In this document: positions 2,033-60,133 of the stretch, piece by piece
Numbering within the stretch: the stretch's first letter is position 1
Layout of the letters: every line of letters begins with the position of its first letter
Assembly (NCBI GenBank): GCA_965205025.1
Contig: CBDBFU010000028.1
Location: forward strand, 64,001-128,000
DNA length: 64,000 nucleotides
Origin: Candidatus Poribacteria bacterium
GTDB lineage: Bacteria > Poribacteria > WGA-4E > WGA-3G
Direction of reading: 5' to 3'
The notes under the pieces: generated by a model
The model's input: the letters and a program-made list of their open reading frames with translations, nothing else
Database searches by the model: none
What the model was told of the DNA's origin: nothing
Program-made: the position numbers and the translations under genes

Positions 2033-3466
2033 ATGTATAAAATACAAGATTATATTTACATAACACTGTTCTTCTGTTTGTTCTTGGTAGATTATAACGC
2101 ATGTGCAGCTGTGATTAATGTTCCAAATGAAGAATTTACGATCCAATCAGGAATTGATGCTGCCGAAAATGGTGATACCGTTTTGGTTGCAAAGGGAGTT
2201 TATAAAGGTCCTGGAAATGTCAACATCGATTTTAAAGGCAAACAGATAATAGTAAAATCTGAGAGTGGACCAAAAACAACAATAATTACATGTTCATATC
2301 AATCCAATACACGCGGGTTTAGTTTTACGAACAAAGAGACAAATGACGCTGTGTTGGAAGGTTTTACAATTCGCAATGGAATCCATATAAATGGTGGTGG
2401 AATTTACATTTTTAATTCTTCTCCAACAATAAAGAATTGCATTGTTGAGTGGAATCGAACTGTGAGAGACGGTTCAAGGACAGGACAAGGTGGTGGCATT
2501 TACGCTAAGAATTCGGATGTTGTGTTAAGGGGATGTACTATTAGCAACAACCGTGCTGTCTCCTACGGTGGTGGTGTTTTCTTTGAAGGATCCGAAGAAG
2601 ATGATATTGAAAAAAGAGACGGATTCTATCAACCAAGTGTGATTGACTGTACTATATCACATAATACGGGTAGTGGTATTCATAGTATAGAGAGTGTACG
2701 CACTATTATCAAAGACTCAAAAGTTTCTCAGAATTCAAGACGGGGTATAGTAGCTGCAATTTTTCAAAGGGGTGGCACTTTCGTAACGAACTGTGTAATC
2801 TCTCAAAATACTGGTGGTGGTGTGGAATGTAACGAATTCTCTATTTTGAAGATCCAAGATTCTGTCATCAAACAAAATACTGGAGAGATCGGTGGGGGAA
2901 TCTACGGAAGTCCGTCAGCAGAAATTGAAGCTACGAACTGTGTTATCGCTCAGAATATAGCGCAGCGATGGGGTGGTGGTATTGGCATAACATCTAAATT
3001 CGGTGGTACGACCATAACCAATTGTACCATTACACGTAATGTGTCAGAAGAAAAAGGTGGTGGCGTTTACGCTTCATTATTTGGTGCTGGTTTAACAATG
3101 TTAAACTCTATAGTTTGGGGAAATAGTTCTAACCGTACTCATAATGAAATCTTTGGCAGTGGACCAACAATCACCATTAGAAATTCTGATATCAAGGATG
3201 GAATCAAAGGCTTTGTAATACCACCATTTGATGAATGGCTAATCTATGAGGATAATATCGAAGCTGATCCGCTTTTCGTAAATCCTGATAGTGGGGATTA
3301 TAGTCTTGAACCAAACAGTCCAGCCATAGGAATGGGGCATACGGCGGAATTAAAGATAGATGTCGAAGAAGATGAACAAGAACAAGAAGAAGAAAAGGCT
3401 CCAGTTAATGTAACTTCAGCTGGAAAGCTTGTTGTAAAATGGGGTGTTTTGAAACAAGAAGATTAG
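2033..3466 (+). CDS. Secreted right-handed parallel beta-helix (pectin-lyase-like) protein with C-terminal KLxxxWGxLK motif
   Basis: GGAGG RBS before ATG 2033; signal peptide; TIQSGIDAA..GDTVLV..GVY; repeated GGGI..NCxIxxN turns; DPLFV..DY; ends GKLVVKWGVLKQED. Confidence 0.85.
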   Translation: MYKIQDYIYITLFFCLFLVDYNACAAVINVPNEEFTIQSGIDAAENGDTVLVAKGVYKGPGNVNIDFKGKQIIVKSESGPKTTIITCSYQSNTRGFSFTNKETNDAVLEGFTIRNGIHINGGGIYIFNSSPTIKNCIVEWNRTVRDGSRTGQGGGIYAKNSDVVLRGCTISNNRAVSYGGGVFFEGSEEDDIEKRDGFYQPSVIDCTISHNTGSGIHSIESVRTIIKDSKVSQNSRRGIVAAIFQRGGTFVTNCVISQNTGGGVECNEFSILKIQDSVIKQNTGEIGGGIYGSPSAEIEATNCVIAQNIAQRWGGGIGITSKFGGTTITNCTITRNVSEEKGGGVYASLFGAGLTMLNSIVWGNSSNRTHNEIFGSGPTITIRNSDIKDGIKGFVIPPFDEWLIYEDNIEADPLFVNPDSGDYSLEPNSPAIGMGHTAELKIDVEEDEQEQEEEKAPVNVTSAGKLVVKWGVLKQED

Positions 3467-3486
3467 CTCTAAAGTTGGAGAAATAC

Positions 3487-4884
3487 ATGAAGAGATATTG
3501 CCAGCAAGTTTATTTAATTATCATTCTATGTTTCTTTTGTATGGATACCTCAATTTTTGCTGCTGTGATACAAATTCCTGATGATCTTCCTACAATACAA
3601 TCTGGCATTGATGCTGCAAAAAATGGTGATACGGTCTTGATCGCAGATGGAATCTATAAAGGTGATGGTAATGTTAACTTAGATTATAAAGGGAAACAGA
3701 TAATAGTAAAATCTGAGAGTGGACCAAAAACAACAATTATCAACTGTTCACATCAACCCAACACCCGGGGGTTTACTTTTACAAACAAAGAGACAAATGA
3801 CGCTGTGTTGGAAGGTTTTACAATTCGTAATGGAATCCATATAAATGGTGGTGGAATTTATATTTTTAATTCTTCACCAACAATAAAGAATTGCATTATT
3901 GAGTGGAATCGTGCAGTGAAAGAGAGTACTGTGACAGGACGAGGTGGTGGGATTTATGCGAAAAATTCGGAAGTAGATATTATTGGTTGTACAATTAGCA
4001 ACAATCAAGCCGAACATACCTATGGTGGTGGTATTTGCTTTGAAGGTGACAAAGAAGATCCTGACTTTTTTCTTGTAAGATTCTATCAACCGAGTATAAG
4101 TAATTCTATCATTGATCAGAATACTGGTAGCGGTATCCACAATATAGGGTATATACAGACACACATCAAGAAATCAATAATCTCTCGAAATACGCTACGC
4201 GGTATAGTAGCTACAGATTTTCAACGAGGCGGTACCTACATTACGAACTGTGTAATCTCTCAAAATACTGGTGGTGGTGTGGAATGTAACCAACACTCAA
4301 TAATGGAGATTAAAGATTCTGTCATCAAACAAAATACTGGAAAGATCGGTGGGGGAATCTACGGAAATACGGCAGCATCAATTGAGGCTACGAACTGTGT
4401 TATCGCTCAAAATATAGCACAGCAATCAGGTGGTGGTATAGGTATAGAATCTAAATGGGGTGGTACGACCATAACCAATTGTACCATTACACGTAATGTG
4501 TCAGAAGAACAGGGAGGCGGTGTATATGCTTTTTCATTTGGTGCAGGTTTAACTATGTTAAACTCTATAGTATGGGCAAATAGTTCTAATGGTACTCATA
4601 ATAATCTATTTGGAAGTGGACCAAGTATTGTTATAAAAAATTCAGATATCAAGGATGGAATTCAAGGTATTGAAATTCCACCATTTGATGAATGGTTAAT
4701 CTATGAAGATAATATTGATTCAGACCCACTGTTTGTTGATCCTGATAACGGGGATTATAGGTTAATGCAAGGGAGTCCAGCTGTAGGAATGGGGGCTAAT
4801 ACATTATCTCAAATTCCAACGAGTGTCAGGTCTGTTGGTAAGAAATGGTTGAAATGGGGAGAACTCAAACTGAATACACGTTAG
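3487..4884 (+). CDS. Secreted parallel beta-helix protein, tandem paralog of 2033..3466
   Basis: GGAG RBS before ATG 3487; same motifs and long identical blocks shared with the upstream gene; ends GKKWLKWGELKLNTR. Confidence 0.85.
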   Translation: MKRYCQQVYLIIILCFFCMDTSIFAAVIQIPDDLPTIQSGIDAAKNGDTVLIADGIYKGDGNVNLDYKGKQIIVKSESGPKTTIINCSHQPNTRGFTFTNKETNDAVLEGFTIRNGIHINGGGIYIFNSSPTIKNCIIEWNRAVKESTVTGRGGGIYAKNSEVDIIGCTISNNQAEHTYGGGICFEGDKEDPDFFLVRFYQPSISNSIIDQNTGSGIHNIGYIQTHIKKSIISRNTLRGIVATDFQRGGTYITNCVISQNTGGGVECNQHSIMEIKDSVIKQNTGKIGGGIYGNTAASIEATNCVIAQNIAQQSGGGIGIESKWGGTTITNCTITRNVSEEQGGGVYAFSFGAGLTMLNSIVWANSSNGTHNNLFGSGPSIVIKNSDIKDGIQGIEIPPFDEWLIYEDNIDSDPLFVDPDNGDYRLMQGSPAVGMGANTLSQIPTSVRSVGKKWLKWGELKLNTR

Positions 4885-4904
4885 AATGAAATGGGTCAAA
4901 CATT
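4885..4904 (+). repeat. Left copy of exact 20-bp direct repeat AATGAAATGGGTCAAACATT
   Basis: Identical to 6921-6940; begins immediately after the stop codon at 4884. Confidence 0.9.
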
Positions 4905-4990
4905 CTCATATAATTTACTGAATCAGATAGCAAGACTATTCTGATGAAATCTCCCAATTCGGCTCGCTTATCCGACGACAAGGAGGCATC

Positions 4991-5278
4991 ATGAAAAACG
5001 CTGAACTTAAACAACAAGCGATTGCTTATATTGAACAACTTTCGACTGAAAAACTTGAGACCGCCCTTAACTACCTCGCTGCTCTTCGGAATTCTGATCT
5101 TTGGGTAGCCGAGACGGAGTCGGAAGAACGAAAAAGTTCGGATCAGGTGTCTCCACTCCTTGCATTGGCGGGAACGTTGGAATGTGACGAGGAGAACATC
5201 AGTGATCGCCACGATGAGTTGATCGGTGATGGGTTACTAACAGAGCTATGGGGGCGTGCGGATACCTATAGTGGGTAG
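4991..5278 (+). CDS. Small antitoxin-like protein (DUF2281-like), no adjacent toxin
   Basis: AAGGAGG RBS; N-terminal IEQLSTEKLETALNYLAAL and C-terminal LLALAGTLE..ISDRHDELIG patterns typical of small type II antitoxins. Confidence 0.6.
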   Translation: MKNAELKQQAIAYIEQLSTEKLETALNYLAALRNSDLWVAETESEERKSSDQVSPLLALAGTLECDEENISDRHDELIGDGLLTELWGRADTYSG

Positions 5279-5308
5279 TCCACGTTAATTTTGTGAGTAG
5301 TTTCTTCT

Positions 5309-5366
5309 GTAGGAGCGACCTCCTGGTCGCGACATGATTTTTCGTAGCGCAAACTGTTAGTTTGCG
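5309..5366 (+). repeat. Two GTAG-type REP-like hairpins
   Basis: GTAGGAGCGACC-TCCT-GGTCGC (5309-5330) and GTAG-CGCAAACT-GTT-AGTTTGCG (5344-5366). Degenerate copies of the latter occur near 55794 and 57113. Confidence 0.7.
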
Positions 5367-5519
5367 TCCTCACAGGCACAATCTAAGCAATATTAAATAA
5401 TTAATTAGCAATTTTCCGATTTTTACCACAGACACTGAACCCGTAATTGACGCACAATATACATATCTAATATGTGAAATCCGTGTAATCCACAATTCAG
5501 ACAAAGTGGTAATGGAATT

Positions 5520-6848
5520 ATGAAACGTTATCCTGAATATAAAGACAGCGGTGTGGATTGGATTGGTGAGATACCAAAGGATTGGAATGCAGTTCCATTG
5601 ACAAAGTATTTGGAGTCTATCATTGACTACAGAGGTAGAACGCCGGAAAAGACAGAGAATGGAAGGTTTCTTGTTACCGCCAAAAACATAAGAGATGGTC
5701 AAATTGATTATGAACTTTCTCAGGAATTTACATCAGAAGATGAATATCAAAGATTAATGACCAGGGGTGTGCCACAAATAGGTGATGTGCTTTTCACAAC
5801 AGAAGCACCGTTGGGTGAGGTGGCAAATGTAGATGATGTCTCAATTGCTCTGGCACAGCGGATTATTAAGTTTAGACCTAAGACAGATTTACTTAATCCG
5901 TATTTTCTGAAGTATTGGATACTCTCCTATTGTTTCCAATCTGACCTACAGCGATATGCAACGGGTTCAACAGCACGAGGCATAAAAGCGAGTAAACTCT
6001 GTTTATTAAAACTCAATCTACCCCCTCTTAAAGAACAAACCAAAATCGCCAACTTCCTTGACCGAAAAACAGAACAAATCGACAAACTCATCCGCATCAA
6101 AGAACGAAAAATAGAACTCCTACAAGAACAACGCACTGCACTGATAAATCACGCAGTGACAAAAGGACTTGACCCAAATGTGGAGATGAAACCATCGGGT
6201 GTGGAGTGGATTGGGGAAATTCCAAAGCATTGGGTAGTTAAACGACTAAAATATTTAGCAAGATTAATATCAAAAGGGACAACTCCCACAACACTTGGGA
6301 GAGAAATTATGGATGAAGGTGAAATTCGTTTTATTAAAGGTGAAAACTTAGTTGATAGTCAAATCGAACTCGAACCTGCATACTTTATTGATGAAGAAAC
6401 AAACCAATTGCTAAATAGATCTAAATTAGAGGAAAATGACCTTCTTTTTGTTATTGCGGGAACAATAGGAAAAGTTGGAATAGTTCGATCAATTCATTTA
6501 CCTGCAAATACTAATCAAGCTTTATCATTTATAAGACTTAACGAGGATGAACTACCCGAATTTGTTTTTTATTGGCTGCAATCGGATAAAATTCAAAATA
6601 TGGTTTGGTTAGATGTAGTAAAATCAGCACAACCTAACTTATCTATGGAGAACTTAGGTAACCTGTATATACCATATCCATGTCTTACTGAACAAAGACA
6701 GATTATTCGATACATTAAGGAGAAATCAGAAACCATAGTTAATCACATTAAACAGTCTTATGAACAGATTAAACTCCTAAAAGAATACCGACAATCCCTT
6801 ATCACCGAAGCAGTGACAGGTAAAATTGATGTCCGAAACGAGGTTTAG
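5520..6848 (+). CDS. hsdS: Type I restriction-modification specificity subunit, orphan in this window
   Basis: Two TRDs, each preceded by SGV[DE]WIGEIP; helical spacers LPPLKEQTKIA and LKEYRQSLITEAVTGKIDVR. Confidence 0.93.
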   Translation: MKRYPEYKDSGVDWIGEIPKDWNAVPLTKYLESIIDYRGRTPEKTENGRFLVTAKNIRDGQIDYELSQEFTSEDEYQRLMTRGVPQIGDVLFTTEAPLGEVANVDDVSIALAQRIIKFRPKTDLLNPYFLKYWILSYCFQSDLQRYATGSTARGIKASKLCLLKLNLPPLKEQTKIANFLDRKTEQIDKLIRIKERKIELLQEQRTALINHAVTKGLDPNVEMKPSGVEWIGEIPKHWVVKRLKYLARLISKGTTPTTLGREIMDEGEIRFIKGENLVDSQIELEPAYFIDEETNQLLNRSKLEENDLLFVIAGTIGKVGIVRSIHLPANTNQALSFIRLNEDELPEFVFYWLQSDKIQNMVWLDVVKSAQPNLSMENLGNLYIPYPCLTEQRQIIRYIKEKSETIVNHIKQSYEQIKLLKEYRQSLITEAVTGKIDVRNEV

Positions 6849-6920
6849 ATCCTATCTTGTTATTTTTTTGATTCGGCGTACAATATAGGGGTATAAAGTT
6901 TATGGCAGTAACAAGCATAA

Positions 6921-6940
6921 AATGAAATGGGTCAAACATT
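6921..6940 (+). repeat. Right copy of exact 20-bp direct repeat
   Basis: Identical to 4885-4904. Confidence 0.9.
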
Positions 6941-7379
6941 ATTAAATAAAAAATGAAGAAAAAATCCATATCTAACAACTAACATACATATATCACAAAA
7001 ATAGAAGCACACTTTAAGAATATCTGTCAAAATGAAAATAAAATTAAGGGTTAGAACACAAACTAAAAACCAATAACTATAAACTAATGACTATCTATAA
7101 AAGCGATCCTAATTACGAACTTTTATATACGTTAAAAAACACGCATCTTTTGACGGTTAGAAATGTCAAAATCAGGAAGGACAACAAAAACACAAAAGCA
7201 CATTTTTTTGAAATTCTTATAAATCAAGTCCAAACTGCTATAACCCCATTCTATGACAGGGGTTATAGGGGTAATTTACACCAATTTCAATGTCACACCA
7301 TGTGACAAAAAGTGTAACTTTTTTCATTTTTTCGACGCATAGAGAAATGCAACAGTAATACGATCTACTGTCTGAGTAT

Positions 7380-7448
7380 TTAGGATTAAATGTCTGTTTT
7401 TATAGTTTATTTTTGTATGTATATTAGGATTAAATGTCTGTTTTTATA
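7380..7448 (+). repeat. 25-bp direct repeat pair TTAGGATTAAATGTCTGTTTTTATA
   Basis: Copies at 7380-7404 and 7424-7448, upstream of lysS. Confidence 0.8.
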
Positions 7449-7682
7449 CCTTTTTAACAATCAGAAATATCAGTTATTGAAGAGTATTCTCAAGACCAAG
7501 TTACAATCTACCGATCTAATTCGGGAAATTTGTGTAATCTTTCTATTCCAAACACAAGATAGGGATTTCAAGCCAAAAACTTTACTTATCTATAAATTGG
7601 TTTCATGTTGCATAGATTAGGAAATAAGGGTATAATTAAAAGGTCTATAATATGTATGTAAGAGGGGAAGGAGGGTAGATAT

Positions 7683-9155
7683 ATGGAAGAATCAAATGAC
7701 TTAATGCGACAACGAAAAGAAAAAGTAAATGAAATCCGTGAAGCGGGTATTAATCCTTATCCGCATCAATATACACCTACACACTCAACGTCACTCATTC
7801 ATAATGAATTTGAAGATGCGGATGATACACCAGATGAGAAAAATAAAGTCACTATCGCTGGAAGGATAATGACAAAACGCGATCATGGAAAAAGCAGTTT
7901 TGCACATATACAAGATAGTGAAGGACAAATCCAAATATACATACGACGGGACAATGTTGGACAAGATGCCTACCAGATATATCGAAAAGTTGATGTTGGT
8001 GATATTATCGGTGTGAGTGGCGTCGTTTTTCGGACACGTACTGGTGAGTTAACTATACTTGCTGATACAGTCGAATTACTCTCCAAATCTATCAGACCTC
8101 TCCCTGAAAAATGGCACGGTTTACAAGATAAGCAGACAAGATACAGACAACGTTATGCTGATCTTATCATGAATCCTGAAGTAAAGGATGTATTTATCAA
8201 GAGAACACATATTATACAAACTATACGGGACATGTTAAATGATGACAATTTCATTGAAGTAGAAACACCTGTCTTACAACCTATTTACGGAGGGGCAAGT
8301 GCGCGGCCATTTACGACTTATCATAATACATTAGATCAACCTTTATATCTCAGAATCGCGAATGAACTTTACTTAAAAAGACTAATTGTCGGTGGATTTG
8401 ATAGAGTCTATGAATTTTCACGTGACTTCAGAAACGAAGGAATGGACAGAGATCATAATCCAGAATTTACCATGTTAGAACTCTATCAAGCTTATGCTGA
8501 TTATCGAGAAATAATGGAACTAACAGAGAATCTTATTGCACAGACTGTTGAAAAACTACACGGCACAACAAAAATACAATACCAGGAGCAAGAGTTAGAT
8601 TTTACACCACCTTGGAACAGAATTACAATGGTGGAATCAATTCAGCAACACAGTAATTTTGATCCTGTTTCCTTATCTGATGACGAACTATACACTAAGT
8701 CTATTAATGCTGGAATTGAATTAGAAGGTGATGAATCAAGAGGTGAAATTATAGCAGAACTGTTCGATACATTTGTTGAAGATAAACTAATTCAACCCAC
8801 CTTTATTTATGATTACCCTATAGAAGTTTCTCCTTTTGCTAAAAAGAAACCTGAAAATCCTGAATATGTTGAACGGTTTGAATTCTTTATTTCTGGAATG
8901 GAAGTTGGTAATGCTTTTAGCGAACTAAATGATCCAATTGATCAACGACAACGTTTCTTAGAACAAGCAAGCAATTTAGAGAAAGGTGATGAAGAAGCCT
9001 TTATGGTTGATGAAGATTATCTACGCGCATTGGAATACGGAATGCCACCCACAGGTGGACTTGGAATAGGAATTGATAGATTGACAATGTTGTTGACTGA
9101 TCAATATTCCATTCGTGATGTGATTCTGTTTCCGCAAATGCGACCAGAAAGTTAA
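7683..9155 (+). CDS. lysS: Lysine--tRNA ligase (class II)
   Basis: OB-fold anticodon domain; YLRIANELYLKRL, FRNEG, HNPEFT and GLGIGIDRL motifs. Confidence 0.98.
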   Translation: MEESNDLMRQRKEKVNEIREAGINPYPHQYTPTHSTSLIHNEFEDADDTPDEKNKVTIAGRIMTKRDHGKSSFAHIQDSEGQIQIYIRRDNVGQDAYQIYRKVDVGDIIGVSGVVFRTRTGELTILADTVELLSKSIRPLPEKWHGLQDKQTRYRQRYADLIMNPEVKDVFIKRTHIIQTIRDMLNDDNFIEVETPVLQPIYGGASARPFTTYHNTLDQPLYLRIANELYLKRLIVGGFDRVYEFSRDFRNEGMDRDHNPEFTMLELYQAYADYREIMELTENLIAQTVEKLHGTTKIQYQEQELDFTPPWNRITMVESIQQHSNFDPVSLSDDELYTKSINAGIELEGDESRGEIIAELFDTFVEDKLIQPTFIYDYPIEVSPFAKKKPENPEYVERFEFFISGMEVGNAFSELNDPIDQRQRFLEQASNLEKGDEEAFMVDEDYLRALEYGMPPTGGLGIGIDRLTMLLTDQYSIRDVILFPQMRPES

Positions 9156-9716
9156 ATGCTTACACCACCGATACTAAATACAGAAAGGCTGTTACTACGA
9201 CCATTTAAGCTGGAAGATGCTTCAGAGGTACAACGACTGGCTGGGGAAAGAGATATAGCTGCAAACACAGCTGTCATTCCACATCCCTATGAAGATGGGA
9301 TGGCAGAGGAGTGGATTTTTTCACATAGCAAGGGATATGAAGAAGGAACTGCACTCAATTTAGCAATTACACAAAAAGATAACGATACCTCTCAAGAAAC
9401 TCTTCTAATAGGTGCAATCGGTATAAGTATTGATCTCACAGAAAAAATCGGAGAACTAGGATTTTGGATTGGAAAACCGTATTGGAACAAAGGTTATTGT
9501 ACAGAAGCTGCAAAAGAAGTACTCATGTACAGTTTTAATGATATAGGTTTAAAGAGTATTCACGCCTTTCATTTTGGAAGAAATCCTGCATCAGGAAGAG
9601 TATTGCAAAAAATCGGTATGCAATATGAAGACTCCTTTCCAAATGCTATTGAAAAATGGGGAAAGAAGGAAGACCTAATCAAGTATAATATTCAAAGTAA
9701 TGTTATTGATTCCTAA
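9156..9716 (+). CDS. GNAT family (RimJ/RimL-like) N-acetyltransferase
   Basis: TERLLLRP, ELGFWIGKPYWNKGYCTEA, NPASGRVLQKIGM. Confidence 0.9.
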   Translation: MLTPPILNTERLLLRPFKLEDASEVQRLAGERDIAANTAVIPHPYEDGMAEEWIFSHSKGYEEGTALNLAITQKDNDTSQETLLIGAIGISIDLTEKIGELGFWIGKPYWNKGYCTEAAKEVLMYSFNDIGLKSIHAFHFGRNPASGRVLQKIGMQYEDSFPNAIEKWGKKEDLIKYNIQSNVIDS

Positions 9717-9781
9717 TACACCTTAATCTGAGATAATTTATCAGGCTACGGCTGATATAGAAAATTAATTTAATCTATTAT

Positions 9782-11242
9782 ATGAAATTTGAATGGTTCG
9801 TAGCTTCACGTTATTTACTCTCTCGACGAAAACAATCTTTTATTTCGATTATTAGCGTTATATCTATAGTTGGGGTTTCACTTGGTGTTGCAACTGTAAT
9901 ATTGGTAATTGCTGTCTTGGATGGGGTTGAACATGGACTCAGAGATAGATTCCTTGCAAATGAAGCACATGTAGCAGTCAGCAAAATAGACAGAGGTTTT
10001 TTTGATGATTATGAGAAAAGAATTGATGCTATTCAAAAGGTTGATGGTGTTGTCTCTGTATCCCCAGTAGTATATACGCAATCAGCTATTTTTCAGAAAG
10101 GTAGTCAACGCATTGAAGATGTAATTTATATCAAAGGAATTGATCCTGAAGTAGAGGATACAGTTACAGGTTTTTCTAAATTTGTTGAAGGATCAGTAGA
10201 TTTTCAGGATCAGAAGATAATTGATCAAGCAAGTTTCCTCAATGATGAGTCAGTTACAGGAGGAATAGTACTTGGTGCACGTTTAGCAAGAAATCTAACA
10301 TTACATGAAGGCGATATACTCAGACTTGTAGTAAACTTAGAAGAAGATCCACATTCAGCTGGTGCATTTCTGCCAAGAATAAGAAATTTTGTTGTAATTG
10401 GTTTTTATGAATCAGAATTAGCTGTTTATGATAGTAGAATGGCTTTTATCCATTTGGATACTGCCCAGAAAATATATGAAAAAGAAGGTAATATTAATGT
10501 AATATTGGTTCGATTGGATGATCCTGAACTTGCACCTACAATTGGAGAAGAACTTATTGAGGTTGCTTCATTCGATATACTTGATATGCCTATTGCAACC
10601 ACTTGGTTGGATACACATGCACCACTGTTTGCAGCATTAGAGTTAGAAAAAATGGCAACTGTCATTATAGAGGCACTAATTATTCTGGTTGCAGCATTTA
10701 ACATTGCAAGTACATTGATAATGACGGTAATGGAAAAAACGAGAGATGTTGGCACGCTTCGCACACTTGGCGCGTCCCGTGGTAATATCATGTCTATATT
10801 CATGATTCAGGGATGTGTAATTGGCATGTTAGGTACACTTCTGGGAACAGCTTTGGGATTAGGCGTCTGTAAATTACTGAGTACAAATGTAATTCGACCT
10901 TCACCATTGATAGCATTTGCAACTATAGGACTATTAATACTCCTACAAATTAGTATTACCTTCAAAGTGGTATTATCAAGAACAAAACTAAAAAATATCG
11001 TAATGCTGGTTTTTTGGATTGTTGGAATTGCGTTTGTGTTATATTGTTTAGTTCAACCGATCTCATTAGAAGAATTAGGTTTGAGTGAAATATATCAGAT
11101 GAATCAACTCCCTATAAAAATTAATTGGTTTTTTGTTGGTTTTATTAATCTTCTCTCATTCTCTATCTGTTGGTTAGCTACGATTTATCCAGCATTTCAG
11201 GCATCCAATATGAGACCAATTGAGGCGTTGCAATATGAATAA
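9782..11242 (+). CDS. lolE: Lipoprotein-releasing ABC transporter permease (LolC/E family), with two extra C-terminal hydrophobic segments
   Basis: FVASRYL..SFISIIS, VAAFNIASTLIM.VMEKTRDVGTLRTLGA, YPA..AS..PIEALQYE; adjacent to lolD. Confidence 0.88.
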   Translation: MKFEWFVASRYLLSRRKQSFISIISVISIVGVSLGVATVILVIAVLDGVEHGLRDRFLANEAHVAVSKIDRGFFDDYEKRIDAIQKVDGVVSVSPVVYTQSAIFQKGSQRIEDVIYIKGIDPEVEDTVTGFSKFVEGSVDFQDQKIIDQASFLNDESVTGGIVLGARLARNLTLHEGDILRLVVNLEEDPHSAGAFLPRIRNFVVIGFYESELAVYDSRMAFIHLDTAQKIYEKEGNINVILVRLDDPELAPTIGEELIEVASFDILDMPIATTWLDTHAPLFAALELEKMATVIIEALIILVAAFNIASTLIMTVMEKTRDVGTLRTLGASRGNIMSIFMIQGCVIGMLGTLLGTALGLGVCKLLSTNVIRPSPLIAFATIGLLILLQISITFKVVLSRTKLKNIVMLVFWIVGIAFVLYCLVQPISLEELGLSEIYQMNQLPIKINWFFVGFINLLSFSICWLATIYPAFQASNMRPIEALQYE

Positions 11243-11245
11243 TCC

Positions 11246-29033: not shown

Positions 29034-29368
29034 ATTGCACATAATTTACCCGATAATATGTAAAGTATTTTGAATACTCCGAAATAGAGACTATAGTCAG
29101 TTAATTAACTTGTACCAAACAATCAATCTTCTCGGTAATCTACACATTAATTAAATAAAACCTATCGTTGTTTTATTTCCTTTTGTTATCGGCATTTCTA
29201 TGACAATAGAATTACCGCAGCATCGAATTTGAATTCCGTATTTCTCAATCTATACAGTAATTCCTAATTCCTGTAATTGAATTGTATTGTGATGATATCT
29301 ATCATCAAATAGATTAGTTTATTCTTAAAATATACTATAATCAAGTTTGCAGTAAAGGTTTGTAAACT

Positions 29369-38567: not shown

Positions 38568-38991
38568 AGTCATTCCCCGCCTACCGGTGCTATAAGAATA
38601 TTTATTTTGGAAGAATGAAGATAAAATACCTATTATCAAACTCCCGTTAGATGTATGGATAATGTAAATGAAAAAAATGTTAATATTTATTGTTCTGAGA
38701 TGATTGTACTTTCACGGAAACCTTCACGGAGCAATTTTACGAACCCTTATTCTATAAGGGTTTATAATTTTAATGATACCAATTCTTCGTGAATCACGAA
38801 TGTTAATATATTATTAACTAAGTATAAACTAAATGTATCTTTGGTTTTCCTCTGGTACCATTTCTATGAAGGTAAACAGACCATCGACAGAAATACACAG
38901 AACCCAAAATCCCTTCCTACCCGCACAGATTTTTAAACCTTTTTCCCCTATATCATACTCTATATATTAAAACCAACTCAGGATTCTAATC

Positions 38992-46672: not shown

Positions 46673-46677
46673 AAACG

Positions 46678-50912: not shown

Positions 50913-52808
50913 ATGAAGATAATAAGGACATTAATAATTACTTTTACACTAATTCCTATGTTATATTGTATCTGTGTCTATGCTCAAGGATTAGAAGAGA
51001 TCAGTTTACCTGATGGTGCCAAAGCAAGAATTGGCAATGGTAGAGCAATGAAGGTCAAATACTTTCCGGATGGTACTCGAATTGCAATCGCATGTTCTAT
51101 AGGTATATGGATTTATGATTTACAAACGGAAGAAACGATAGATCTTCTCACAGGTCACACAGGTCCTGTCAATTCATTAGTTTTCAACCCTGATGGGAGT
51201 ATGTTTGCTACTGCCAGTGACGATAATACCGTTGTGTTATGGGATTCGAATACAGGAGAAAATTTACGAAGACTTAGGGGGCATGGTGATGACGTTAATG
51301 ATGTTTCTTTTAACCCTGACGGACAGATACTTGCAACAGCAAGTGATGATAACTCGGTCGGATTATGGAATATAAAAACAGGAGAAAAGATTAAGGATAT
51401 ACGAGGACATTCAGATAACGTACTTGCACTGATGTATTCAATGGATGGATCTATAATTGCAAGTGGTTCTTATGGGAACGGTGATACTGTTTGTATATCA
51501 AATCCAACTTCAGCTGAAGTTTTACACCAAATTTCTGACGAACAATATGGTATACAAGATGTTGAATCGGTGGATTTCTTAAAGGGCAGTACTCTATTTG
51601 CAGTAGCAAGTTATGAGAAAATAAGTCTAATAGATGGAATTACAGGAAAACTGATGAGTACTTGTCACGTGGAAAGTTGGATGGATCAAATATATTCAGT
51701 TGAGTTTGCTCCTGACGGAAAGACACTTGCAAGTGGTACTGGCAACAATGGAGTATGTATTTGGGATGTTGCCACAGGAGAATTATTACAAGAACTTGGA
51801 ACAGACGATTCAGTTATTTCTGTGACCTATTCTGCAGATGGAAATACGCTTATAAGTGTAACCGAAGATGGGATCATACACTTTTGGGATTTGAATAATG
51901 AAAAACTCACGAATACGATTACAGATTTTTCGTTTTATATATATTCAATGGTGTTTTCATCCGATGGAAAAACACTTGTCTGTGGAAATAAGTCAAAGAT
52001 ATCTATCTGGAATCCTGAAACATTAGAAATTATAAAAACTATTCGCGGACAAAAAGGTCAAGTCACATCACTTGCATTTTTACCAGATGAAAAAGTACTG
52101 GCTTCATCAGATTCTAACAATAGTCGTTTATGGGATATAAAAACTGGAAGATTCCTCGGGAGTTTTAAAGGTCATACAAACACAGTTAAATCAATCGCAA
52201 TTTCTCCTGATGGAAAAATGTTAGCAAGCGGGAGTCAAGATAGCTCAATTAGACTATGGGAGATTCGCACCAATAATCAATATATGATTGGGGATCAAAT
52301 AGCAATATTGAAAGACCATACAAGGAGAATTACCTCCGTAACATTGTCACCAGATGGCAGTACACTTCTAAGTGGGAGTTTTGATAATTCTCTTATGTTA
52401 TGGGATGTTGAAAATAGAAAACTCTTAAAAACATTGAATGAACACAAAGATATAGTCGATTCAGTAGCATTCTCACCAGATGGAAATACATTTGCAAGTG
52501 GGGATCGAGGCGGACGGGTGTGTTTATGGGATAGTAAGACACAAGAACTCATAAGGACTATTAGGGCACCAACCTATTGGGTAGATTGCATTACATATTC
52601 ACCTGATGGAATGTTTCTCTCATTTGGGAGTGATGACCTTGTAAATGTGTATGACTTGAAGTTAGAAGTAATTATAAACACCTTCCGTGGACATACCAAT
52701 TTGGTGAATAGTCTCGTCTATTCCCCAGATGGAAGAATACTTGCCAGTAGCTGCCGGGATGGAAGCATACTGTTATGGGATCTATCAAAATTGGTTGATG
52801 ATAAGTAG
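50913..52808 (+). CDS. Secreted WD40-repeat protein (paralog of 31333)
   Basis: Signal peptide, SLPDGAKARIGNG cap; shares GRFLGSFKGHT..IRLWEIR..IGD with 31333. Confidence 0.92.
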   Translation: MKIIRTLIITFTLIPMLYCICVYAQGLEEISLPDGAKARIGNGRAMKVKYFPDGTRIAIACSIGIWIYDLQTEETIDLLTGHTGPVNSLVFNPDGSMFATASDDNTVVLWDSNTGENLRRLRGHGDDVNDVSFNPDGQILATASDDNSVGLWNIKTGEKIKDIRGHSDNVLALMYSMDGSIIASGSYGNGDTVCISNPTSAEVLHQISDEQYGIQDVESVDFLKGSTLFAVASYEKISLIDGITGKLMSTCHVESWMDQIYSVEFAPDGKTLASGTGNNGVCIWDVATGELLQELGTDDSVISVTYSADGNTLISVTEDGIIHFWDLNNEKLTNTITDFSFYIYSMVFSSDGKTLVCGNKSKISIWNPETLEIIKTIRGQKGQVTSLAFLPDEKVLASSDSNNSRLWDIKTGRFLGSFKGHTNTVKSIAISPDGKMLASGSQDSSIRLWEIRTNNQYMIGDQIAILKDHTRRITSVTLSPDGSTLLSGSFDNSLMLWDVENRKLLKTLNEHKDIVDSVAFSPDGNTFASGDRGGRVCLWDSKTQELIRTIRAPTYWVDCITYSPDGMFLSFGSDDLVNVYDLKLEVIINTFRGHTNLVNSLVYSPDGRILASSCRDGSILLWDLSKLVDDK

Positions 52809-52864
52809 GGATAGTCCACGTTTAGAATTCACTTTTTCCAAAACCTGCAATTTTTTTTATTTTT

Positions 52865-52892
52865 TGCACCCTTTTTTGTCCTTAATTGTATC
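52865..52892 (+). promoter_or_regulatory. Variant ECF-type promoter
   Basis: TGCACC-N18-TATC, same -35 and spacing as the module at 44096/47095/62867. Confidence 0.45.
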
Positions 52893-52987
52893 TTTATACT
52901 TTTAAAGAGTAAGTTTGGCTACAATTAACAAATTTCGGTCTATTTATTCATAATTGACTTTATACCAGATCTAATGGAGTTTTTCTG

Positions 52988-55713
52988 ATGGTAGATGAAG
53001 ATGTTCAACTAATTAATAGAATTTTATCAGGTGATGACGACGCTTTTTCCACATTAGTTGAAAAGTATCAAAAAGGAATTCATGCTTTTGCATGGCGGAG
53101 GATTGGGGATTATCACTATGCTGAAGAAATTACTCAAGATACTTTCGTGCAAGTCTATAAAAACCTTTCGTCACTCAGAAATCCTTATCAGTTTGCGGGA
53201 TGGTTATATGTGATTGCTAATCGCCTATGTCTTAAGTGGTTACAAAAGAAAAAAATGAACGTTCAATCGTTAGAGGACACACCCATGGCAGAAATAGAAC
53301 AATATTCATATAACAAGTATATATTGGAAGAGCGAAAGACGAATGCCAGAGAAAGTGGTCTTGAGATAGTTAAGAAACTTCTGGATAAACTTCCTGAAAG
53401 TGAACAAACTGTCACAACCCTTTACTATTTAGGTGAAATGACAGCAAAAGAGATAAGTAAGTTCTTAGGCGTGTCGGTAAACACGATTAAGAGTAGACTT
53501 CGCCGAGCGCGCATTCGTTTACAGGAAGAAGAACTACCGTCTGAAGAAATATTGAACTCTGTTCAATTCTCTACCAATCTTAGTGAAAACATCCTACAGC
53601 GAGTTGTTGATATAAAACCGACTCCGATTCCAAGTGCAAAGCCAACACTTCCATGGGTAGTTTTCAGTGTTGCTACCTTTTTAGTTATGTTATTAGGTGT
53701 TTCCAATCAATACTTTGATCATTTCCAAAAACCTTATAGTTTTGACACACAATCTGAACAGACAGTTGAAATTACTGATGCCCATGTTTTTCTTGACACA
53801 GATGTAAGACCCTCTAATCTAAATCAAGTAGGACGAACTGATACTGATGGCAATAACAGTGGTATCAGTGTTCAAGATTCTGACTCGGTTATAGCGTCTG
53901 ATGAACAGGATTGGCACTTGCGAGGCTTACCCGTAGGTGTGAAAGCACGGATCGGTAAAGGCTTCATAACTGGAAGAATCTCGATTTCAACTGATGAAAA
54001 ACGTATGGCGATACCGTGTAGTATCGGTATTTGGATATATGACACAGAAACAGATAAAGTACTTGATCTAATCACAGGACATTCTAATTGGTATAGGAAC
54101 GTTGCGTTTAGTCCAGACGATATCCTGTTGGCGAGTGTGCGGGGGATAAAGTAGTACATATGTGGGATGCACGCACAGGTACTGAACTTTGGACCATGCA
54201 AGGTCATAAGGACATAACAAAGGACGTGGTATTCAGTCCGGATGGTTCACTATTAGCAAGTGGAAGTGAAGACGAAACCATCCGTCTATGGGATGTGCGA
54301 ACCGGCACACATATTAGGACGTTAATTGGACACATTAGAGGTGTAACAAGCATTGCATTCAGTTCAAACGGTGAAACGTTAGCGAGTGGCAGTGACGACA
54401 AAACTTTACGGTTGTGGGATGTGCATACAGGGGCATTAGTGCAGACAATCAGGGGATATGAAACTGCTGGAATAAATTCCGTTGCGTTTAGTCCGGATGG
54501 TAGGACAATTGCGAGTGCAAGTGATCACAATACCTTTCATCTATATGACGTACAGACAGGTAAATTACGCTACAAGTTGGTAGGAAATAATGGCTCAGAT
54601 GTCCATACGGGTATTGATTTTGTTAACTTTAGTCCAGATGGGTCAAAATTGGCAACTGCAAATCGAGATCGTACAATACGTCTGTGGGATGCACATACGG
54701 GGGATTTGATACAGGTGCTCAATGGACACAGGTCACATGTTCTCAGCGTTGTATTTAGTCAAGACGGTAAAACGTTGATAAGCAGTAGCAGAGACAACAC
54801 CGTGCGGTTGTGGGATGTAGATACTGGAGAAGAACTACGTAAGATGGTAGATCATATGCGGGGTTTACGTAATGTAGCGTTCAGTCCGGATGGGAAAACA
54901 CTTGCAAGCTGTACTTGGGGCAATAACGTTCGGTTATGGGATGTGCAAACGTGTTCACTGCTTCAGTCACTGGAGGGACATACCAAGTCTGTAACAAACG
55001 TTGCGTTCAGTCCGGATGGACAGACATTAGCGAGTAGCAGTTGGGACAATACCGTTCGTTTATGGGATATAAAAACGGGCATTTCGCTTCCACCTCTGGT
55101 TGGACATAATAAAGGGGTCATGAGCATTAACTTTAGTCCGAATAGCAATACTCTTGCAAGTGGCAATTATGATGGCACCATCTATTTGTGGGATACGCAA
55201 ACAGGTAAACGGAAGTATACGATGACAGCGAGAAATTGGGTCAATAGCGTTGCGTTCAGTCCAGATGGTTCTGTACTTGCAAGTGGTAGCTGGGACAATA
55301 CTGTGCGTACGTGGGATGTGAATACCGGCACATCGCTTTTGACATTGGATACAAATCAGAATGTCAATTCTGTCGTGTTTAGTCCGGACGGGAAGATGCT
55401 TGCATCTGGAGATCATAACAGCACCTTGCATCTATGGGACGCTTTATCGGGTGAACCGCTTTGGACGTTGGCGGAACAACGAGGAAGGATCAATAGTATA
55501 GATTTCAGTCCGAATGGAAAAATACTGGCAAGTGGAGGTGATGATGGCACTGTGCTGTTGTGTGATGTACTCACTGGCACTCCTTTTCGGACACTTAATA
55601 AACATCGAGGTCCTGTTGATAGCGTTATGTTCAGTCCGGATGGTAAAACATTGGCGAGTGCAAGTGGTTGCACCGTATTGCTGTGGGAAATTAGATCTGA
55701 TACGGTGAATTAG
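52988..55713 (+). CDS. ECF sigma - TM helix - WD40 fusion, split by a 1-nt frameshift near 54135-54145 (ORFs 52988..54154 and 54160..55713)
   Basis: Sigma2/sigma4, TM LPWVVFSVATFLVMLLGV, GLPVGVKARIGKG cap. The first blade continues in the -1 frame as GDKVVHMWD. Confidence 0.85.
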
Positions 55714-55748
55714 GTTTGTTGGACAGATTCGCCACTACTACTCATCTA

Positions 55749-56020
55749 ATACCATTTATAGTAATTAAGTCTCATTAATTGAATTTCTTTAATGTAGCAC
55801 AAACTTCATGAAGATTAAGTAAATATTTCGGTAATTCTAATTTTCCCAAACCCGGTAGGTGCGGTTTCCTAACCACGGGGAATGCTAAATAGCATTCATA
55901 CCGTTGATTCGAATTTCTAACACATTACCGAATTATTATTTTAATCTTCATCCAGTTTGTGTAGGATTTTAAGACATAAATAACACCTAATCATGGAAGA
56001 ATCATTTATAGAGATGGTAT
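55749..56020. mobile_element. Nested MITE/REP composite element
   Basis: Outer ATACCATTT/GATGGTAT ends. A GTAGCACAAACT..AGTTTGTG hairpin is split by an element with TIRs ATGAAGATTAA (55808) / TTAATCTTCAT (55951). Confidence 0.7.
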
Positions 56021-56246
56021 AAGTTGACAGATTACAAGATTTGGACGAATAAGCATAGCAAAACTGATTTTTGACATTCTGCAAGTTGTCTACACCGAAA
56101 TTGTATTCATAAAGAGAATAATCGCTGGCTATGACTACATTCGAGTTTGAAAGTATTATTATTTCTTATCGCAACAAATATAGAAAAACTATATAGTGAT
56201 AAGTAGCAACTTAGGTTACCATACATCCAAATGGAGGAATTCAACT

Positions 56247-57099
56247 ATGAAAAACTCTTTATTCGTTATCATACTAACCATATTATTCTCTATAGTAATA
56301 TCCAATCTAACCTCAGCAGAGATTGTCATAGACGGACTCGTAAGCTATTGGACATTTGACAAAAACGATATAATCAATAGAACATTAAAAGACGTATGGG
56401 GTGAAAACAACGCAACAATACACGGAGACCCTAATACCGCTACAGGCATAGCTGGAGAAGCACTCAAATTCGATGGCAGAGGCGATTACATTGATCTAAC
56501 AACACTCGGTGATTTTGGAGGGCAGTTAGGGAAATCCACCTTTGAAGCTTGGATAAAAACTACCAACACAACTGATTGGATGACGCTTATAAATACAAAT
56601 GGACATCTGTGTCCTAATTGGGGAATTCAAATAAACGCGAGAAAAACTAAAAATGCTCTTTGTTAGGGCGGAAAGGATGCTTTCCTTCAACCATAGTCTA
56701 ACAGATGGAAAACAGTGCTTTCCAATTGTTCTCGGTGATTATTCACCTGTATTCGATGGGAAATGGCATCATATCGTCTACATACTGGATTTTGAGATAA
56801 ATGAAGCAGGTGGACGCGGGAACGAAAGGGTCTATATTGATTCTATCCGAAGACCAAGGTCAACAGCAAATGTTCAGGAAGAATTTGGCTTTTTCCCCTT
56901 CACTGCTCCTGTCTATCTTGGTGCAAGAAAAATCGATGATACAGCATACAGTTTCTTTAAGGGATACATAGATGAAGTCCGTTTATATGATCGTCCTCTC
57001 ACAGAAAATCAAGTCATCAAAAACTACAATTCAAGAACACCTTACAACGTCGAACCTAAAGAGAAATTGACAATCCTTTGGGGCAAACTCAAACAGTAA
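56247..57099 (+). CDS. Secreted LamG-like (concanavalin-A fold) protein with C-terminal motif, frameshifted (+1) near 56642-56662
   Basis: Signal peptide, GLVSYWTFD, ALKFDG..DY, TFEAWIK | WHHIV, FKGYIDEVRLYDRPL, VEPKEKLTILWGKLKQ. Confidence 0.82.
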
Positions 57100-57193
57100 T
57101 CAGAAATATTTAGTAGTGTAAACTGTTAATTTGCGTGCTAAGATTCACAAAATGTAATATTAAAAAACTTCAATTTGGAGAATATATTTTATT

Positions 57194-58034
57194 ATGAAAA
57201 TATTGAAAAGATGTATTATTTTTGTCCACATAACTATTTTGACATTACTAATGTCTATAAGTATATCTATATGTTCCTTTGCACAAGGAAAGGTAAATGT
57301 TAAAGGGGGACCTATTCCCGAAGTAGAATGGATGGTAAATGTCGCTGGAGAGTCCGTTAAACGAGGATCATTCTAATGTTGACACTTGGATTACCAAGTG
57401 GTATGGACCGGATGGTAATTATGAAAACAACGGAGGATTTATTAAGAGTGCCCCATTAGACCTAATTGAAGAAGGGACTGATGGAAAATTAGACCAACTT
57501 ATACTTTCCACAGTTACAGGATTGAATAAAACCAAATCTGTTGATATCAATTGGCCACTTAATGGCGGAAAACGAGATTGGACAGTCTTCGAAATTAACC
57601 CCGATAGTGCAAATAATATTTGGAAAGAAGGTGGCGGAGCCAATAATTTTGACACATACGCAATTTGTGTTATAGACGCACCGAAAAATATGAAATCTGT
57701 TATGTCTCCTGCTCATGATGATCATGCACAAATATGGATAAATGGTGAAAAATGGTATAATCATTCGCAATGGACTGGTGGAACGACACGAGTTAACTAC
57801 AATATTGAAGTTGAATTGAATAAGGGTGCAAATATACTCTTATTTAGGTGTGGAGAAGGAGGGGGTAGTGCATACCTAAACCTTCACTTTGACGACGCAA
57901 CTCACGATGCCGTTGATATTTACCCAGATCAGGCAGATGACAAAATTAGTTTCTTCAAAGAGATATTTGGAGCATTATCAATTGAACCAATTGATAAACT
58001 AACAACAATATGGGCAGATATTAAACGGAGATAA
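57194..58034 (+). CDS. Secreted beta-sandwich protein of unknown function with C-terminal motif, frameshifted (+1) near 57359
   Basis: Signal peptide. Removing one A gives AGESVNEDHSNVDTW. HDDHAQIWING and LNKGANILLFR; ends IEPIDKLTTIWADIKRR. Confidence 0.75.
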
Positions 58035-58145
58035 ACTATATTAACCTGAGTTTGAAATAGAATTCAATTTTAAAATATTGTGTATACTATGTGATAATTA
58101 TGATACCATTTATCATAAATATCCAACTTTAGAAGGAGGTTATTG

Positions 58146-59061
58146 ATGTTTGTCAACTTTAAACTCTTATTAAGCGTAATGCTACTACTCAGCTACGTTG
58201 TCCCTGTCTTTGCTTTTGAGCCTTCTGGCGGTGTTTTGTTGCTGGATGGTGAGGATGACTATGCCATACTCCCCTTTGCGGAACATGGAATATATTATCC
58301 CTGAAGGTACCCGTGAGTTTACGGTGGAGGCTTGGGTCTATCCAAAAGCTGAACCGAAGGAAAAAGATAATGACCTCATTCTTAGTCAGCAAGTTGTCTT
58401 CAGGATGATCGCAAGGGACAGGTGCAGACCTAAAAAGAATCAATTTTGCAGTACTCGGTATGCATATCTTTCAAGAGAAGGGGCTCACGGAATCGCAGGA
58501 ATAGATGATGCAATAGAGAAAGATCAATGGAACTATATAGCAATCATCTTCAAGAATAGCACACTTTATCATGTGACAAACGATCAAATTACTGGAGGCA
58601 GACAATTGGTTTTTGCAAATAGAGTGTCTTCAAATATTCGTAGACCTGAAGGGGTTGAAGCCTTTGTCGTAGGCGGATTTGATGAAGATAAGGAAATGTT
58701 TGATCGTCATGGACAATTGTTATTTCAAGTGAGTTGGTTTCAAGGGGCAATTGATGCTATAAGGTTTTCAAATATCGCCCGATATGATTTACCTAATGAG
58801 CCTGGAATCCATCCGTTTATTCCACCGCAACGCCTCTTTAGTGATCCGCACACGTTAGCATTTTGGGACTTCAATGACAAAGAAGGTGAAACGGTCTTTC
58901 AAGATGAATCGGGAAATGGAAATACGTTAGTTGGCATGAATGGTGCTATGACGATTGGTGGAGCTGGTGTTAATCTTATTCGTGATACCGATGATGGACT
59001 GGATGTTCGTCCAAACAACTCTTTAACAACGACATGGGGACAGATAAAATTGAGGGAATAG
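58146..59061 (+). CDS. Secreted LamG-like protein with C-terminal motif, frameshifted (+1) near 58289
   Basis: AGGAGG RBS; MFVNFKLLLSVMLLLSYVVPVFA signal; LLLDGEDDYA | FTVEAWVY, FQGAIDAIRFSNIARY, TLAFWDFN; ends SLTTTWGQIKLRE. Confidence 0.8.
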
Positions 59062-59314
59062 TTATACTAAAACGAAAACTAACGTGAGTTTGAAAAATAG
59101 TTAGACTTCCACATTTCCACTTAAAGTCCACCTGTTAAGGGGGACTTAGGGGTTAAAAGACAAATAAACTATTTAATTGTCAGATTTTTTGACTAAAATC
59201 TCCTATTTTCTACACAAACTGCGTAAGTCCTGATCATATTACATTCCAATTGCTGTGATAATACCGAATCAAATTACCTGAAAATCCACTATTCTAATTC
59301 ATATTAATCAATAA

Positions 59315-60133
59315 ATGAAGTATTTATTTTCTTTTATTTTATGCTTGATGCTTCTATCTCAAATTTCAATTTCTGGGACTTATGTTGATACATTTGAGGA
59401 TCGTAGATTGTCAGATTGGAAAGAGATTAACGTAAATGACTCTCGACCTGTCAACTGGAAAGTATCCAATGGAGAAGTCCGTGTAGAAAGTAAAGATAGC
59501 AATACTCGGATACTCGTTCTAAAAGATATAGAATGGACAAATTATGAGGTGGGAGTTGAGTGTGATGCCTCTTAAAAGACATGGACACGGACACATTGTT
59601 CTGGCTTCAAGAGTCACACCAACCAGAGCCATTGTTTTTACTATAGGCGATATATTCTGGAACGCTCCAATATCAATCGCTACAGGAACGATTCTCAACT
59701 TGGAAAATGGAGGATTAGAGGGAACTCCGTTGCAGTTCGCTAAGATACGGAATCTTCAAAATGGCAATAAGCAACAAGTAAAGATTGATGAACTATTACG
59801 GGTTGGGGTAGATCTGCCTTGTAATAATGTACATCCATATCCATTTCTAAAAACACATGAGTGGACACATCTAAAACTAATGGTCAGTGGCGACCTATTT
59901 ATGCTCTGGGTAAATGAGGAATTAGTTCTAAATACAAAATGTAATTTGCACATTTGGCATTTCTGAAAGGTGACCTTGTCACTGGAAGCATCGGTTTTGG
60001 CATAGCAGGATATACTGCTCTATTTGACAATTTTGTGGCTTCAGGTGAGGAAATACCCAACCAAGGTAGATTGTCCGTCCAACCACAAGAGAAACTTGGA
60101 CTCACATGGGGAAAATTAAAAGTGGGTCAATGA
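59315..60133 (+). CDS. Secreted protein (DUF1080/LamG-like fold) with C-terminal motif, two frameshifts (near 59551 and 59945)
   Basis: Signal peptide, TYVDTFED, WTNYEV|ELSVMPLKRHG, WTHLKL..LWVN | GSIGFGIAGYTALFDNFV..SVQPQEKLGLTWGKLKVGQ*. Confidence 0.75.

Follow-up and report, generated by a model that had tools for sequence, protein, structure and literature searches.

A short C-terminal tail on exported proteins of Candidatus Poribacteria: a candidate phylum-specific sorting or attachment signal

Six genes on the + strand of the window, the 64,000-nucleotide stretch of a Candidatus Poribacteria genome analysed here (assembly GCA_965205025.1, contig CBDBFU010000028.1, positions 64,001–128,000), encode proteins that end in variants of one short peptide, referred to below as the tail. 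A first-pass annotation, made by a model from the DNA letters, had pointed to these six proteins and suggested that they share a lineage-specific sorting signal. The six open reading frames (ORFs) have their stops, which are included in the gene coordinates of Table 1, at positions 3466, 4884, 57099, 58034, 59061 and 60133, and each of the tail strings listed by that annotation does terminate an ORF at its place. A tail profile (A1), built from 59 tails of this genome and scoring 28–46 bits on true tails, matches the window exactly six times, at 20–37.5 bits. The four tails at 56–60 kb score 31–37.5 bits, and the two on β-helix proteins, which represent a divergent version, are the weakest at 20–24 bits. 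The product of the gene at 2033..3466 begins with MYKIQDYIYITLFFCLFLVDYNACA, which is signal-peptide-like.

Table 1. Tail-bearing genes of the window and the tails at their ends (positions count from the first base of the window).
Feature	Position	Strand	Evidence
Exported right-handed β-helix protein, single ORF	2033..3466	+	Pfam Beta_helix 2.9e-22
Divergent tail VTSAGKLVVKWGVLKQED of gene 2033..3466	3410-3463	+	Tail profile 20.1 bits, C-terminal
Exported β-helix protein, paralogue of the 2033..3466 product, single ORF	3487..4884	+	Pfam Beta_helix 3.3e-20
Tail VRSVGKKWLKWGELKLNTR of gene 3487..4884	4825-4881	+	Tail profile 24.0 bits
LamG (Laminin_G_3) protein with signal peptide	56247..57099	+	Pfam Laminin_G_3 on both halves; assembly break near 56659
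Tail VEPKEKLTILWGKLKQ of gene 56247..57099	57049-57096	+	Tail profile 33.9 bits
Exported protein, no Pfam family	57194..58034	+	Assembly break near 57352
Tail IEPIDKLTTIWADIKRR of gene 57194..58034	57981-58031	+	Tail profile 32.8 bits
LamG-like exported protein	58146..59061	+	Laminin_G_3 5.3e-05, under curated cut-off; assembly break near 58289
Tail VRPNNSLTTTWGQIKLRE of gene 58146..59061	59005-59058	+	Tail profile 37.5 bits
DUF1080/3-keto-disaccharide-hydrolase-like exported protein	59315..60133	+	Weak 3keto-disac_hyd matches in two pieces; assembly breaks near 59551 and 59944
Tail VQPQEKLGLTWGKLKVGQ of gene 59315..60133	60077-60130	+	Tail profile 31.4 bits

All six products had been credited with both a signal peptide and a tail. 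This stands for the two β-helix genes at 2033-3466 and 3487-4884, each of which is a single ORF, but not for the other four genes as assembled: across 56.2–60.1 kb each is frameshifted, with its signal peptide and its tail in different frames. Contigs from public reads were compared with the assembly over positions 56100-60200 using four runs, of which X1 and X2 belong to one study and possibly come from the same sample as the window assembly, while X3 and X4 come from two further studies. One base is absent at 56659, 57352 and 58289 in the read-derived contigs of all four runs, and one at 59551 in every run covering that place; X3 and X4 agree with the base absences at the four sites that they cover. 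Run X1 also lacks a base at 59271 and has an extra T behind 59944. Once the read-derived changes are made, the four genes become uninterrupted frames of 304, 289, 313 and 272 codons, all with the tail at the end. Two congeners contain unbroken orthologues with signal peptide and tail, one of 294 residues for the gene at 57194..58034 (genome G004) and one of 289 residues for the gene at 59315..60133 (genome G012). Since the read-derived contigs differ from the assembly at the break sites and the orthologues in two congeners are intact, the frameshifts are single-base assembly indels, and the read-derived contigs rule out that the four split genes are pseudogenes. Further apparently split genes of this genome may also be assembly artefacts.

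The tail is far more frequent than these six genes suggest. The genome assembly comprises 5.66 Mb in 33 contigs (∼38% G+C, 95.5% complete), and the pattern search covered its 52,656 six-frame stop-to-stop ORFs of at least 40 residues. A loose regular expression gave 132 matches genome-wide, 121 of them at 0–6 residues from the stop, and profile A1 at ≥15 bits gave 135 matches at most 8 residues from the stop plus a single one at 10–12 residues. The genome-wide count that the first-pass annotation had proposed therefore yields 135 C-terminal ORFs, and its suggestion that the motif is confined to C-termini is borne out by both searches. These ∼135 ORFs make up roughly 3% of crude gene calls, and the tail proteins have a median length of 266 codons. 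The core consensus, L-x-V-[ED]-P-x-[GD]-K-L-[TA]-T-T-W-G-x-[LI]-K, spans ∼17 residues. When the 135 tails are aligned on the Trp, W(0) and K(+4) are present in all 135, K(−5) in 128, V(−10) in 126 and L(−4) in 94; position −8 is P in 88 and A in 31, and position +1 is G in 102, A in 22 and S in 10. The remaining consensus positions are L(−12), [ED](−9), [GD](−6) and [LI](+3). The last K is followed by 0–10 residues (mode 3) that are rich in K, R, Q, S and N, so that the extreme C-terminus is not conserved, yet the motif must adjoin it. The tail residues V, K, L, W, G, L and K are retained even among paralogues with only 18–33% identity. The tail-encoding DNA uses varied synonymous codons, and this free variation at synonymous sites shows that conservation acts at the protein level.

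Tail proteins are strongly associated with export signals. Signal-peptide-like starts were called by one crude hydropathy rule, which also scores transmembrane (TM) proteins in the background set. By this rule 94 of the 108 tail ORFs of at least 200 residues (87%) have such a start, compared with 924 of the 3230 other ORFs (29%), giving an odds ratio of 16.8 (p = 2e-35). The co-occurrence with signal peptides noted for the six window proteins thus extends to the whole genome. A lipobox-like motif occurs in only 2 of the 108 ORFs. None of the 108 has a hydrophobic stretch in its last 30 residues, the 15-residue hydropathy reaching a maximum of 1.35 with a median of 0.33; the earlier observation that the tail contains no TM helix therefore applies throughout this set. 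Among the tail ORFs that have no signal peptide, many are short and, given the indels seen in the window assembly, are probably split genes.

The proteins to which the tail is appended differ widely, as the six had already indicated. In a Pfam scan of 43 tail proteins, Laminin_G_3 was found in 18, the PD40 propeller in 8, 3keto-disac_hyd/DUF1080 in 6 (in one case together with Laminin_G_3), CBM9 in 3, NPCBM in 2 and leucine-rich repeats (LRR) together with a metallopeptidase in 1, while 6 matched no family. The window genes add Beta_helix, bringing the tail to at least seven Pfam families, and in the 43 proteins every Pfam match stops before the tail. Six large tail proteins have 573–1998 codons, and five of these carry an immunoglobulin-like segment ahead of the tail; the segment upstream of the tail in large proteins ('YYYQIEDVS...') matches no NCBIfam or Pfam model. 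Some PD40 homologues of tail proteins in other genomes (L220, L222, L244 and L245 in G110 and G099) end not in the tail but in an amphipathic-helix-like C-terminus, 'AFLNTR..LK.F..GLS.FLSN'; the genome of the window (G000) yielded no such homologue.

Two AlphaFold2 models, both built with alignments, bear on the conformation of the tail. The model of a LamG protein has a mean predicted local distance difference test score (pLDDT) of 89.6, with values above 90 to approximately residue 220 and of 39–56 over the last 20 residues, and the tail in LamG proteins directly follows the last helix of the domain. The model of a PD40 propeller has a mean pLDDT of 91.7, with values above 90 to approximately residue 313, and its C-terminal end has 10-residue block means of 78, 56 and 63. 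The tail forms no strand of the domain in either model; it is undocked and predicted with low confidence. The position immediately behind the last LamG helix is what would be expected if the tail were a strand or lid that completes or regulates its passenger domain, the case that the first-pass annotation had named as fatal to a sorting signal. However, the same tail is found on at least seven unrelated Pfam families and is undocked in both models, and a structural role of this kind is largely refuted and, in our view, scarcely credible.

The taxonomic boundary of the tail is sharp. A strict DNA pattern encoding K-[LF]-x-T-T-W-G-x-h-K was found in every one of the order's 41 genomes and in 173 of the phylum's 176, with tens of copies per genome, and the same pattern read backward, used as a control, had no match in any of the 176 phylum genomes. 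The three genomes negative for the pattern (G053, G054 and G056) have 86, 116 and 94 profile matches, respectively, at E≤10, and each has at least 20 among the 150 matches listed (E≤1.2e-5). The tail is universal in Candidatus Poribacteria as sampled (176 of 176 genomes), and the lineage specificity originally suspected is thus that of a phylum. A scan of 185,579 species genomes returned at least 115 stretches, of which 110 of 115 are true tails as judged by context and stop position. Of the stretches with titles, 70 of 80 are labelled Poribacteria, and among the matches listed four true tails come from metagenome-assembled genomes (MAGs) labelled 'uncultured bacterium'. One MAG labelled Pseudomonadota (G176, 1.9 Mb) has two true tails on one contig (L055 and L056) and, in total, five tail matches on four contigs, which are probably mis-binned Poribacteria contigs, and the tail could act as a contamination marker. 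The Synechococcus and Psychrosphaera genomes from which two chance matches came contain no tail. Against 1.84 billion representative proteins the profile gave 529 matches at E≤0.001, and in 145 of the 150 best library matches the motif lies at most 8 residues from the protein end. The names found for 10 tail-protein clusters are a Candidatus Poribacteria DUF1080 protein, one record from the sponge Geodia barretti, a case parallel to that of the Pseudomonadota MAG, and 'hypothetical protein'. Rare occurrence of the tail in other phyla may exist. The motif is short, and this is the one property that would favour its origin by chance, from a DNA element present in repeated copies or through faulty annotation, to which we assign virtually no probability: the backward-read DNA pattern has no matches, nor does profile A1 at ≥15 bits on reversed sequences, the codons are varied and the tail is conserved across 176 genomes.

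The first-pass annotation could not say whether a database model of the tail exists. No NCBIfam or Pfam model was found to match it in the window proteins, the 43 tail proteins or the C-termini of the large proteins, and close homologues are named just 'LamG domain-containing protein [Candidatus Poribacteria bacterium]' or 'hypothetical'. An ESM Atlas search with the tail alone gave best scores of 0.83–0.85 to unnamed clusters of ∼40 residues, which is under the meaningful level. In the full-text literature searched, 'KLTTTW' and 'KLATTW' have no occurrences and the papers listed for 'TTTWG' and 'ATTWG' are on unrelated subjects, and the literature searched on Poribacteria together with type IX secretion systems (T9SS; three papers, judged by title and abstract), LamG or C-terminal signals contains nothing on a short poribacterial tail. 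The available text of a single-cell study, Kamke et al. 2014 (PMC3909097), describes a TIGR04183-like domain on many poribacterial eukaryote-like proteins; its authors did not find the structural genes of Por secretion and wrote of the pathway that it 'remains to be revealed'. The domain described there is a different signal from the tail.

Among characterized systems, the tail most invites comparison with the T9SS type A C-terminal domain (CTD; TIGR04183), which is likewise a C-terminal tag on Sec-exported proteins, contains no TM helix and has dozens to hundreds of different proteins as its cargo in a genome. Lauber et al. 2024 (PMC10994853) report that the type A CTD is recognised by its shape, as a folded domain, and that the only near-invariant residue at the surface that contacts the translocon is a Lys near the C-terminus. 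By that account the T9SS signal is a folded 7-stranded β-sandwich of ∼70–100 residues, whereas the tail has ∼17 residues and no predicted fold. The tail shares the near-terminal Lys of the CTD described there but not its fold, and for this reason it fails membership of the T9SS type A CTD family, even if it works similarly. In line with this, TIGR04183 has no match on the six window proteins (E≤1) or on the 160-residue C-terminus of a tail protein (E≤10).

The PEP-CTERM/exosortase, LPXTG and GlyGly-CTERM tags resemble the tail as short, lineage-restricted C-terminal tags on many exported proteins, and PEP-CTERM has in common with it both a Pro-containing start motif (PEP, compared with V-E-P in the tail) and basic residues at the end. 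In PEP-CTERM and sortase-type tags, however, a TM helix separates the motif from the basic cluster, and the tail has none. NCBIfam sorting-signal models do not match the six window proteins, and the exosortase family PF09721 has no match in the genome of the window, while the control was matched in one archaeon. An LPXTG/sortase tag was rejected on the lack of a TM helix and on its different consensus, with no search made for a sortase gene. The outer-membrane β-signal read by the β-barrel assembly machinery (BAM), in which a terminal aromatic residue ends a membrane β-barrel, was rejected since mainly K, R, Q, S and N follow the last K of the tail and the passengers have soluble folds; by contrast, 26 of the 28 PorV-like relatives listed (see below) end in F. 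The dockerin–cohesin system is similar in that many secreted proteins with a link to carbohydrates bear a portable module at the C-terminus, with a possible common scaffold. Dockerins are duplicated Ca-binding modules of ∼60–70 residues with a matching cohesin family; the conserved part of the tail has ∼17 residues, and no dockerin family was found in the Pfam scans. Encapsulin and bacterial microcompartment targeting peptides are, like the tail, short linear C-terminal peptides of ∼10–20 residues that send proteins of unrelated kinds to a single destination. The proteins that they address are cytoplasmic and have no signal peptide, and such peptides were rejected on the signal-peptide-like starts of 87% of the tail ORFs of at least 200 residues.

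The search for machinery turned up CTDs and divergent T9SS-like parts across the genome, with C14:291587-320011 and C12:233653-233913 (contig and positions) as examples. Profile TIGR04183 has 55 matches above its cut-off in this genome, and most of 28 extracted CTDs read as classical, with 'YPNPFNPETWIPYQL...GVYFYTL...ATRKMLILK' followed by the stop. These CTDs are carried by large proteins, mostly of 500–2200 codons, in contrast to the small tail proteins with their median of 266 codons. Three ORFs with a C25 peptidase are PorU-like (300, 288 and 240 bits; cut-off 420), and three barrels are PorV-like (95, 87 and 66 bits; cut-off 250). The best PorV-like protein was found in all 61 sampled genomes of the phylum, usually together with two paralogues. 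For SprA, five genomes, four of them closed and one in three contigs, each contain one SprA-like ORF of 2158–2225 residues with 3–5 collinear SprA segments, the best scoring 67–77 bits (cut-off 200). In the genome of the window the SprA-like gene is cut by a contig end. The GldK model matches many paralogues, mostly over its C-terminal half, which we take to reflect a generic FGE-sulfatase-type domain. Two weak PorV-like ORFs of 325 and 338 codons (C2:70839-71795 and C28:166865-167812) adjoin giant proteins of 3661 and 3317 codons with CTD-like ends, an arrangement that resembles type B cargo with PorP/SprF-type shuttles. As judged by these profile similarities, Poribacteria carry SprA-like, PorV-like and PorU-like genes, in contrast to the 2014 single-cell study (PMC3909097), whose available text reports no T9SS structural genes. 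A complex prediction for the PorV-like protein (29 alignment rows) with the tail (59 rows) gave a score of 0.00 and was run without controls, and as a model it speaks neither for nor against binding.

The anatomy of the tail is like that of a sorting signal, since it combines a Sec signal peptide with a flexible, conserved and passenger-independent C-terminal peptide, more than 100 cargo proteins per genome and a sharp taxonomic boundary. On balance, we lean towards the tail being a phylum-specific signal that serves the sorting or attachment of exported proteins and is recognised in the envelope. In this scheme, proteins would be exported by Sec to the periplasm by means of an ordinary signal peptide, and the flexible ∼17-residue tail would then be read as a linear peptide by an envelope component, which would carry the protein across the outer membrane or hold it at the cell surface. 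The cargo in this genome would be ∼135 small, mostly single-domain, lectin-like or propeller proteins, and the outcome could be a glycan-binding surface layer on these sponge symbionts. The divergent SprA-like, PorV-like and PorU-like set, which presumably serves the ∼55 proteins with classical CTDs, is the best candidate machinery but is unproven in this role. More tentatively, and with rather less than even confidence, we propose that the tail is the label of an undescribed, Poribacteria-only pathway of outer-membrane sorting or attachment, in which a linear peptide of ∼17 residues, lacking both the TM helix of sortase-type tags and the folded domain of T9SS signals, would direct more than 100 lectin-like proteins per cell to the surface either through a motor-less SprA/PorV/PorU-like apparatus, in parallel to the CTD cargo, or through machinery without known relatives.

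Several results weigh against a sorting or attachment signal served by such an apparatus. Signal peptides were called by a crude rule based on hydropathy and not by a trained predictor. The SprA-like, PorV-like and PorU-like matches all lie under their curated cut-offs, and the tail has no profile similarity to the T9SS-type CTDs of this genome (hhalign probability 0.1%). GldL and GldN were not found in five genomes, nor GldM in the genome of the window, where it alone was sought, and for all three no control genome was matched either. Among three genes on either side of 117 tail genes (4620 crude gene calls), only families of 3–5 members stand out and none is machinery-like. Phyletic profiling had no tail-less Poribacteria genome to work with among the 176, since the three pattern-negative genomes do carry the tail. 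PD40/TolB-like proteins are classically periplasmic, and such passengers would be as compatible with a role in the periplasm as with display at the surface.

Some of the same observations can be read in terms of a docking peptide, that is, a dockerin-like linear tail that binds non-covalently to one envelope receptor or scaffold, such as a protein of the repeat or propeller type or a barrel in the outer membrane, and joins lectin-like modules in a surface or periplasmic complex without any role in translocation. A flexible tail appended to many small binding modules is consistent with docking, as is the conservation of the internal motif while the last 0–10 residues vary, which suits binding in a groove and not recognition of a free carboxylate. 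Exported repeat proteins are also abundant in these genomes, among them the WD40 proteins of the window that have signal peptides, and the amphipathic-helix-like end of some PD40 homologues suggests interchangeable anchors at this position. Yet no gene family is convincingly enriched beside the 117 tail genes, and docking does not require closeness to the stop, although 135 of 136 profile matches lie within 8 residues of it. We consider a docking peptide unlikely.

Still less likely, and in our judgement quite improbable, is a processing or quality-control tag, with a periplasmic protease or chaperone recognising the tail and cutting it off for maturation or activation, or using it in the control of turnover, and not for localisation. 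In favour of such a tag, the tail is C-terminal and, in the two AlphaFold2 models, unstructured and exposed; in addition, cleavage could take place at the conserved V-[ED]-P that lies just upstream of the core, and the genome encodes PorU-like C25 peptidases. It is, however, hard to see what need over 100 unrelated passengers, in each genome of a single phylum, would have of a common maturation tag, and known C-terminal protease tags need the extreme C-terminus, which is variable here.

The interpretation as a sorting or attachment signal matters because C-terminal tags have repeatedly led to secretion or anchoring machines, including sortase, exosortase, rhombosortase and T9SS, and this tag marks ∼3% of crude gene calls in every genome examined of an uncultivated phylum of dominant sponge symbionts. 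Most of the tagged proteins are propellers or modules that bind carbohydrates and so are likely to come into contact with the host matrix, and the tail offers a marker that is simple to compute for the poribacterial 'interaction proteome', whether at the surface or exported. A hidden Markov model of the tail would fill a gap in annotation, as the proteins are now called 'LamG domain-containing', 'DUF1080 domain-containing' or 'hypothetical', and a synthetic tail peptide would be a concrete bait for finding the machinery.

The window contains other features besides the tail genes. The release factor 2 gene prfB lies directly upstream of the first of them, at 930-2009, and its ORF begins inside the protein, as expected if the programmed +1 frameshift that is usual for this gene lies just upstream. 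Between two tail genes, at ∼59075-59240, there is an intergenic element of ∼80–160 bases that has no Rfam match and no inverted repeat; many further copies, 70–93% identical, occur elsewhere in this genome and in those of congeners. WD40-repeat genes form a long array at 29366-55713 and 60510-64000. None of these genes has the tail or a CTD, in agreement with the first-pass remark that the secreted WD40 proteins lack the tail. Five of them, starting at 29366, 31294, 34188, 48843 and 50904, have signal-peptide-like starts, and four, at 38971, 44132, 52958 and 62907, open with a segment like an extracytoplasmic function (ECF) sigma factor. The ORFs at 52958-54151 and 54112-55710 may represent one gene of this array that is divided by another indel.

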